DNA of 24,113 nucleotides from Escherichia coli. GTDB taxonomy: Bacteria; Pseudomonadota; Gammaproteobacteria; Enterobacterales; Enterobacteriaceae. Below are positions 1,394 to 4,861 of the stretch, one piece after another. Below the pieces are notes generated by a model. That model was not told the DNA's origin. It saw only the letters and a program-made list of their open reading frames with translations, and ran no database searches. The position numbers and the translations under genes were made by a program. The stretch lies in NCBI RefSeq assembly GCF_003334355.1, contig NZ_QOWP01000044.1. The stretch is one strand, 5' to 3'. Position 1 is the stretch's first letter, and each line of letters begins with the position of its first letter.

Positions 1394-2221
1394 ATGACAT
1401 TGCAACAACAAATAATAAAGGCGCTGGGCGCAAAACCGCAGATTAATGCTGAAGAGGAAATTCGTCGTAGTGTCGATTTTCTGAAAAGCTACCTGCAAAC
1501 TTATCCGTTCATTAAATCACTGGTGCTCGGGATCAGCGGCGGTCAGGACTCCACGCTTGCCGGAAAGCTGTGCCAGATGGCGATTAATGAGCTGCGCCTG
1601 GAAACCGGCAACGAATCACTGCAATTTATTGCCGTACGCCTGCCCTATGGTGTTCAGGCCGACGAACAAGATTGCCAGGATGCCATTGCCTTTATTCAAC
1701 CGGATCGCGTATTAACCGTTAATATCAAGGGCGCGGTATTGGCCAGCGAACAGGCATTGCGGGAAGCAGGCATTGAACTGAGCGATTTTGTCCGTGGCAA
1801 TGAAAAAGCGCGTGAGCGGATGAAAGCACAATATAGCATTGCGGGTATGACCAGCGGTGTCGTGGTGGGCACCGATCATGCAGCAGAAGCCATTACCGGA
1901 TTCTTCACTAAATATGGTGACGGCGGTACGGACATTAATCCGCTGTATCGTCTCAACAAACGTCAGGGTAAACAGTTACTGGCGGCATTAGCTTGCCCGG
2001 AACACCTTTATAAGAAAGCGCCAACGGCCGATCTGGAAGATGATCGCCCTTCTCTGCCAGATGAAGTGGCACTCGGCGTGACCTATGACAATATCGACGA
2101 CTATCTGGAAGGGAAAAACGTACCTCAACAGGTCGCCAGAACAATAGAGAACTGGTATCTGAAAACCGAACATAAACGCCGTCCGCCAATTACCGTTTTC
2201 GATGATTTCTGGAAAAAGTAA
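1394..2221 (+). CDS. nadE: NH3-dependent NAD+ synthetase
   Basis: 275-aa ORF with the PP-loop motif SGGQDS; recognised as NadE. Confidence 0.93.
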
Positions 2222-2263
2222 TAATTTGCACATATTGGATTGTGCGAAAAAGAGTAATTTGTT

Positions 2264-2366
2264 CACGCCGGATGCGGCGTGAACGCCTTATTCGACCTAT
2301 AAAACTATGCAAATTCAATACATTGCAGGAGTCGAATAGGCCTGACAGGCGTAGCACGTCAGACGG
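2264..2366. repeat. REP/BIME-like palindromic units in the nadE-cho intergenic region
   Basis: GCCGGATGCGGCGTGAACGCCTTATTCGACCTA resembles the canonical E. coli REP consensus (GCCGGATGCGGCGTGAACGCCTTATCCGGCCTAC); a second partially inverted unit follows (...GAATAGGCCTGACAGGCGTAGCACGTCAGACG). Confidence 0.6.
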
Positions 2367-2419
2367 TGTAACCTTTGTCATCGACCCGCCTCTTTTTTAA
2401 TCGCTTCCCGCCTGTTACA

Positions 2420-2435
2420 CTGGATAGATAACCAG
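2420..2435 (+). promoter_or_regulatory. Candidate LexA (SOS) box upstream of cho
   Basis: CTGGATAGATAACCAG = CTG-N10-CAG with AT-rich spacer, about 16 bp upstream of the cho start; cho is a known SOS-regulated gene. Match to the full LexA consensus is only partial. Confidence 0.4.
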
Positions 2436-2450
2436 CATTCGGAGTCAACA

Positions 2451-3951
<1,501 letters not shown>

Positions 3952-4720: not shown

Positions 4721-4861
4721 AAAATTTGATGGAGAGTGATGAGAGAATATTACAACACGATGATTTTGCAGAGATTATGAAGAACTATACCGGATGACTG
4801 GTGATAAATAAAGCAAATAACCAGGATTAATCTGTATTAATTTATAAGAAAGCAACTTAAT

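Follow-up and report, generated by a model that had tools for sequence, protein, structure and literature searches.

The LexA box upstream of cho in Escherichia coli and its putative overlap with an extended -10 promoter

The cho locus and its upstream region

The stretch of DNA analyzed here (24,113 nucleotides in total, referred to below as the window) represents an E. coli chromosome segment of the K-12 type, with the gene content chbB-osmE-nadE-cho-ves-spy-ast and, following the RefSeq annotation, the gene order chbC-chbB-osmE-nadE-cho-ves-spy-astE-astB. Window positions 2196 to 2500 are identical to MG1655, and position 2451, at which cho starts, corresponds to position 1823515 of NC_000913.3. 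The wider segment from 2200 to 3400, with nadE, cho, and ves as its underlying features, was matched in every one of the complete E. coli genomes (5426/5426). The cho open reading frame scored 579.7 bits against the NCBIfam equivalog model NF007833 ("excinuclease Cho"; cutoff, 367), with residues 1 to 287 covered, and UvrC models scored under their own cutoffs on the same frame. Cho is the second 3'-incision nuclease of nucleotide excision repair. A GTG was found at the projected start in most cho orthologues. At its other end, cho (plus strand, ending at 3338) converges with ves, annotated by RefSeq on the minus strand from 3298 to 3873, and the two genes overlap by 41 bp (window 3298 to 3338).

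The features around the start of cho are as follows, in window coordinates.

2393 to 2398, plus strand: T-run at the -35 position of the proposed promoter, with a 17-bp spacer; TTTTTT in 53 of 93 orthologues (1.0 to 1.4 bits), and a poor match to TTGACA
2413 to 2421, plus strand: putative extended -10 element TGtTACACT (TG at 2413 to 2414, hexamer TACACT at 2416 to 2421), overlapping the 5' arm of the LexA box
2418 to 2437, no strand assigned: 20-bp LexA (SOS) box CACTGGATAGATAACCAGCA, almost certainly the cho operator, as judged from matrix score, published motif, and orthologue conservation
2420 to 2435, plus strand: CTG-N10-CAG core CTGGATAGATAACCAG, read from the sequence
2427 to 2429, plus strand: predicted transcription start at the center of the box, 6 to 8 nucleotides past the hexamer and placed solely by the -10 assignment
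2441 to 2444, plus strand: Shine-Dalgarno sequence GGAG, read from the sequence, 6 nucleotides 5' of the GTG and conserved in the orthologue stack
2451 to 3338, plus strand: cho (ydjQ), encoding excinuclease Cho (295 amino acids, GTG start), from the open reading frame list and the RefSeq annotation

An earlier note on this DNA, made from the sequence alone, had pointed to a LexA-like core just 5' of cho, and CTGGATAGATAACCAG is indeed found there, with the half-site cores CTG and CAG exactly 10 bp apart. Its distance to the start codon, given in that note as approximately 16 bp, measures 15 nucleotides from the 16-mer and 13 nucleotides from the full box. The description of the core as palindromic is accurate for the arms, CTGG and CCAG, which are perfect, but not for the 16-mer as a whole, an imperfect palindrome that is self-complementary at 12 of its 16 positions. 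Finally, the remark that the match was to the core only does the site less than justice: the complete 20-mer agrees with the consensus TACTGTATATATATACAGTA, TACTG(TA)5CAGTA, at 14 of 20 positions.

Several other elements are located in the nadE-cho intergenic region. Just past nadE, an inverted repeat (2252 to 2293) with 19-nucleotide arms (GAGTAATTTGTTCACGCCG and CGGCGTGAACGCCTTATTC) includes GCCGGATGCGGCGTGAACGCC, a REP-type extragenic palindrome. Adjoining this REP-like hairpin, and approximately 75 nucleotides upstream of the LexA box, a full-length match to the Rfam sRNA family ES036 (CssrF) was found on the plus strand at 2301 to 2343 (42.9 bits versus a gathering threshold of 37.6). The stretch from 2255 to 2350 occurs at up to three places per E. 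coli genome, and the ES036 match may belong to a BIME/RIP-type repeat instead of marking an sRNA gene in its own right. Closer to cho, a conserved CCGCCTCTTTTTT (2386 to 2398) precedes the proposed promoter. In Pseudescherichia, Leclercia, and Phytobacter, this sequence forms the 3' half and the T-tract of a GC hairpin (GGCGGCgnaaGCCGCC-TCTTTTTT), which points to a terminator of the upstream gene that at the same time sits at the -35 position of cho. The 5' half of that hairpin was not evident in E. coli, and a terminator before the T-run was rejected for this species, with a terminator scan negative there and the fold of 2296 to 2400 no better than that of shuffled sequences (z = -1.1). The CCGCCTCTTTT of this intergenic region is the same as that reported as "motif 2" upstream of UV-induced genes (PMC3009722).

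Score, conservation, and published record of the LexA box

A bare CTG-N10-CAG core is of little diagnostic value, as the window contains 16 of them. While dinucleotide shuffles predicted only 5.1 occurrences, the frequencies of the trinucleotides CTG (0.025) and CAG (0.021) in the window predicted 12.7, so that the excess over the shuffles is largely due to trinucleotide or codon usage and such shuffles understate the chance level for cores of this kind in coding DNA. We therefore turn to the score of the full 20-mer, for which a matrix was built from the E. coli LexA motifs given in PMC3009722 (Table 4; 18 in all), minus cho (17 boxes, with symmetrized counts), and expressed as a heterology index (HI) of the Berg-von Hippel/Lewis type, on which the next-best 20-mer of the window takes a higher value than the best.

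With this matrix, the cho box has an HI of 8.02, a value that, like the others reported here, does not derive from the Lewis 1994 matrix and is not comparable in absolute terms with published HI values. It ranks 11th among the 18 known E. coli boxes, whose leave-one-out values range from 2.0 (istR2) to 17.0 (polB), with lexA (8.09) and ruvA (8.64) adjoining cho. The earlier note had suggested a LexA matrix score as a check, and by this measure the site falls within the range of established boxes and comes out at the top of the window: it is the best of 24,094 20-mers (runner-up HI, 13.63; median, 41), and the remaining 15 CTG-N10-CAG cores have HI values of 15 to 33. The exact probability of an HI of 8.02 or lower is approximately 1.3e-7 per position, corresponding to 0.003 expected sites per window and roughly 0.6 per 4.6-Mb genome, and none of 300 surrogates generated with first-order Markov models of the window reached this score.

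The runner-up, GACTGGTGATAAATAAAGCA (4796 to 4815; HI, 13.6), is located in the spy-astE intergenic region and is without a CAG arm. As its score was attained by 68 of 300 surrogates, which is chance level, we ruled it out as a second LexA site.

For a view of conservation, species-representative genomes were scanned for a degenerate DNA pattern encoding the Cho peptide (Q/K)PLFNKRLRR, which lies inside the coding region and therefore does not favor loci with a box. A Cho homologue was found by tblastn in 113 of 120 loci, of which 97 were usable, that is, included the N-terminus and at least 160 nucleotides of upstream sequence. These orthologues, with 56 to 95% protein identity to E. coli Cho, represent about 20 genera (Escherichia, Salmonella, Citrobacter, Enterobacter, Raoultella, Klebsiella, Kosakonia, Leclercia, Lelliottia, Pluralibacter, Cedecea, Atlantibacter, Franconibacter, Siccibacter, Trabulsiella, Kluyvera, Phytobacter, Superficieibacter, Pseudescherichia, Mixta, and Serratia). 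In 94 of the 97 loci, the best LexA-type 20-mer between -250 and +40 has an HI of 12.3 or lower, and in 92 of these 94 it is the top site of the whole locus (1.3 to 14 kb). The box starts 29 to 38 nucleotides 5' of the projected start codon in 93 of 97 loci, most often at -32 or -33, the E. coli box included. By comparison, among 3,477 control stretches of 290 nucleotides from the same loci, with the cho upstream region excluded, 0.3% reached an HI of 12.4 or lower and 0.17% an HI of 10 or lower (median best HI, 22.6). Across the 93 stacked sites, neither CTG nor CAG varies (93/93 each), and A2 (89/93), A14 (89/93), and A20 (86/93) are nearly invariant, whereas the center varies freely (position 10 being A in 43, C in 22, G in 14, and T in 14 sites); invariant arms around a variable center are what would be predicted for the site of a dimeric repressor.

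A few loci deviate from this pattern. In Kluyvera ascorbata, a good box was found 235 nucleotides upstream of the alignment start, rather than the approximately 33 nucleotides seen elsewhere. No LexA-type box was found within 600 nucleotides upstream of the cho orthologues of Ewingella americana and of an uncultured Enterobacterales metagenome-assembled genome, and none was found in Stenotrophomonas. LexA of the Xanthomonadales recognizes a different motif, so the lack of a box in Stenotrophomonas was expected. Within E. coli, a 65-mer around the box was found in 5,413 of 5,426 complete genomes, and the 33-mer from 2412 to 2444 is at least 99% identical in 5,070 of 5,426; common polymorphisms are located just upstream of the box. 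A natural variant in which the 5' half-site core CTG is changed to CTT (CACTTGATAG..., position 227 of locus L005, corresponding to window 2422) is carried by 4 of the 5,426 genomes (isolate 538, FDAARGOS_144, A21, and UID2309220013). From this change, weaker binding of LexA is predicted, with no effect on the TACACT hexamer.

The published record points to the very same sequence. The 25-mer TACACTGGATAGATAACCAGCATTC, which Table 4 of PMC3009722 gives for the LexA motif preceding cho, a UV-induced gene, is identical to window positions 2416 to 2440, and the documented cho operator, the other point of comparison raised by the earlier note, thus does not lie elsewhere. An SOS review (PMC6590174, Table 1) has cho (ydjQ) in its "Known SOS box" group, with reference to Fernandez De Henestrosa 2000 and Courcelle 2001, and ydjQ has been counted with the known LexA-regulated genes (PMC11039860). 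The induction ratios reported for cho are modest (2- to 3-fold): DNA-damaging quinoxaline dioxides induced E. coli ydjQ 2.2- to 3.0-fold (PMC4546592), and Salmonella ydjQ, with a single box for which a published HI of 6.69 was given on a scale other than ours, was 3.3-fold up with nalidixic acid (PMC8072944). LexA regulation and damage induction of cho are taken here from this literature, and for physical binding of LexA to the box we rely on citation at second hand and on what is established about the SOS regulon. We conclude that window 2418 to 2437 is, almost certainly, the LexA operator (SOS box) of E. coli cho (ydjQ). The central claim of the earlier note, a LexA operator at an SOS-induced cho, is borne out by both the matrix score and the identity to the published motif.

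Promoter geometry and alternative readings

Conservation in the 93 orthologue promoters extends beyond the box on its 5' side. A TG is present at -5/-4 in 76 of 93, and the hexamer follows TA[T/C]ACT in 81 of 93 (TATACT in 41 and TACACT in 40), with 1.9 and 1.8 bits for the T and A immediately 5' of the LexA 20-mer and 1.7 bits for the G at -4. Mirror-image conservation 3' of the 20-mer was not found in this stack, and the asymmetry of the TG/TA conservation goes beyond what LexA can explain. Judged by its letters, TGtTACACT fits the pattern of an extended -10 element, in which a TG stands one base 5' of a TAnnnT hexamer. A consensus promoter scan of window 2150 to 2600 found no sigma-70 promoter, because the -35 position matches TTGACA poorly. 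Extended -10 promoters can dispense with a good -35. Shigella tables of transcription start sites make no mention of cho.

The arrangement that we propose, and to which we would assign roughly even chances, is that the cho promoter is of the extended -10 type, takes its hexamer (TAnACT) from the 5' arm of the LexA box, and has its -35 position held by the terminator T-tract of the upstream gene, which would make operator and promoter one fused, co-conserved module across the Enterobacterales. In undamaged cells, a LexA dimer would occupy both the CTG and the CAG half-site, the former being fused to the -10 hexamer of the putative sigma-70 promoter. With a transcription start in the center of the box and the -10 element within its 5' arm, bound LexA would cover the promoter from -10 to about +10 and exclude RNA polymerase. 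DNA damage would lead to RecA-stimulated self-cleavage of LexA and free the site, and the freed promoter would then yield a cho transcript with a leader of approximately 22 to 24 nucleotides that carries the GGAG and the GTG start. The statement in the earlier note that an operator at this position would occlude the promoter is made plausible by the conserved TGnTAnACT that overlaps the 5' arm in orthologues. If such a fused module is real, CTT variants, or loss of the box as in Ewingella, would be expected to alter SOS control of Cho.

LexA might also bind as a roadblock in a transcribed leader, with the promoter further upstream, consisting of TTGTCA (2375 to 2380) and TTTAAT (2396 to 2401) and starting transcription near 2408. 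These hexamers each match their consensus (TTGACA and TATAAT, respectively) at five of six positions, and the promoter scan, which supports no promoter in the region, favors neither geometry. However, the spacer between the hexamers is only 15 bp, and conservation across the 93 orthologues amounts to approximately 0.1 bit at the TTGTCA position, compared to 1.7 to 1.9 bits for TGnTAnACT at the edge of the box, which makes an upstream promoter improbable in our view.

Considerably less probable still is that the conservation reflects promoter or 5'-leader elements of cho only, with an incidental resemblance to a LexA box and no regulation by LexA. Coincidence of the 5' arm with the putative -10 hexamer could explain part of the conservation of that arm, but the 3' arm, which has no promoter role, is equally conserved (CAG, A14, and A20) at the exact LexA spacing. 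In addition, the score lies inside the range of proven boxes, cho is listed with a known SOS box (PMC6590174), and the literature describes the gene as damage induced (PMC3009722, PMC4546592, and PMC8072944). As for a functionless chance CTG-N10-CAG, the abundance of the bare core (16 versus 12.7 expected) would be in its favor, but neither the probability of the full 20-mer, with no surrogate matching it and no other core in the window coming near it, nor the position kept in 93 of 97 loci, against 0.3% of control stretches, is compatible with that explanation, which we consider refuted already and to which we give virtually no credence.

Comparison with known SOS boxes

The site changes nothing about what is known of cho; it is real, ordinary, and shared by enteric bacteria, and its main use is that of a positive control, a real regulatory site that was recognized by a reader without tools. 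It also carries a caution, as the evidence is borne by the score over the full 20 bp and by positional conservation, while the CTG-N10-CAG core says little.

Among other E. coli boxes, that of ruvA (CGCTGGATATCTATCCAGCA) shares with cho the arms CTGG...CCAGCA (G6, C15, and CA at positions 19 and 20) and has a similar score in the present matrix (8.64 versus 8.02), but it belongs to another gene and promoter and has another central spacer. The box of Salmonella enterica ydjQ (cho) is the orthologous site; in S. enterica arizonae and diarizonae, it reads TACTGGATGAATAACCAGTT at -33. With a T at position 1, the Salmonella box is nearer the consensus than its E. coli counterpart. In PMC8072944, it was placed at distance 0 to the ATG, and a different start annotation must therefore have been used there.

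Finally, the closest relative is the object itself: the SOS box of E. coli cho (ydjQ, b1741), which Fernandez De Henestrosa et al. placed in the LexA regulon in 2000 (cited via PMC6590174), is the same site, so that we are dealing with the specific, already cataloged SOS box of cho/ydjQ and not merely with a member of a known family. No difference from the cataloged box was found, and what is added here is its conserved position and the putative extended -10 element fused to its 5' arm, the latter being only a modest addition with a geometry that curated databases may already record.
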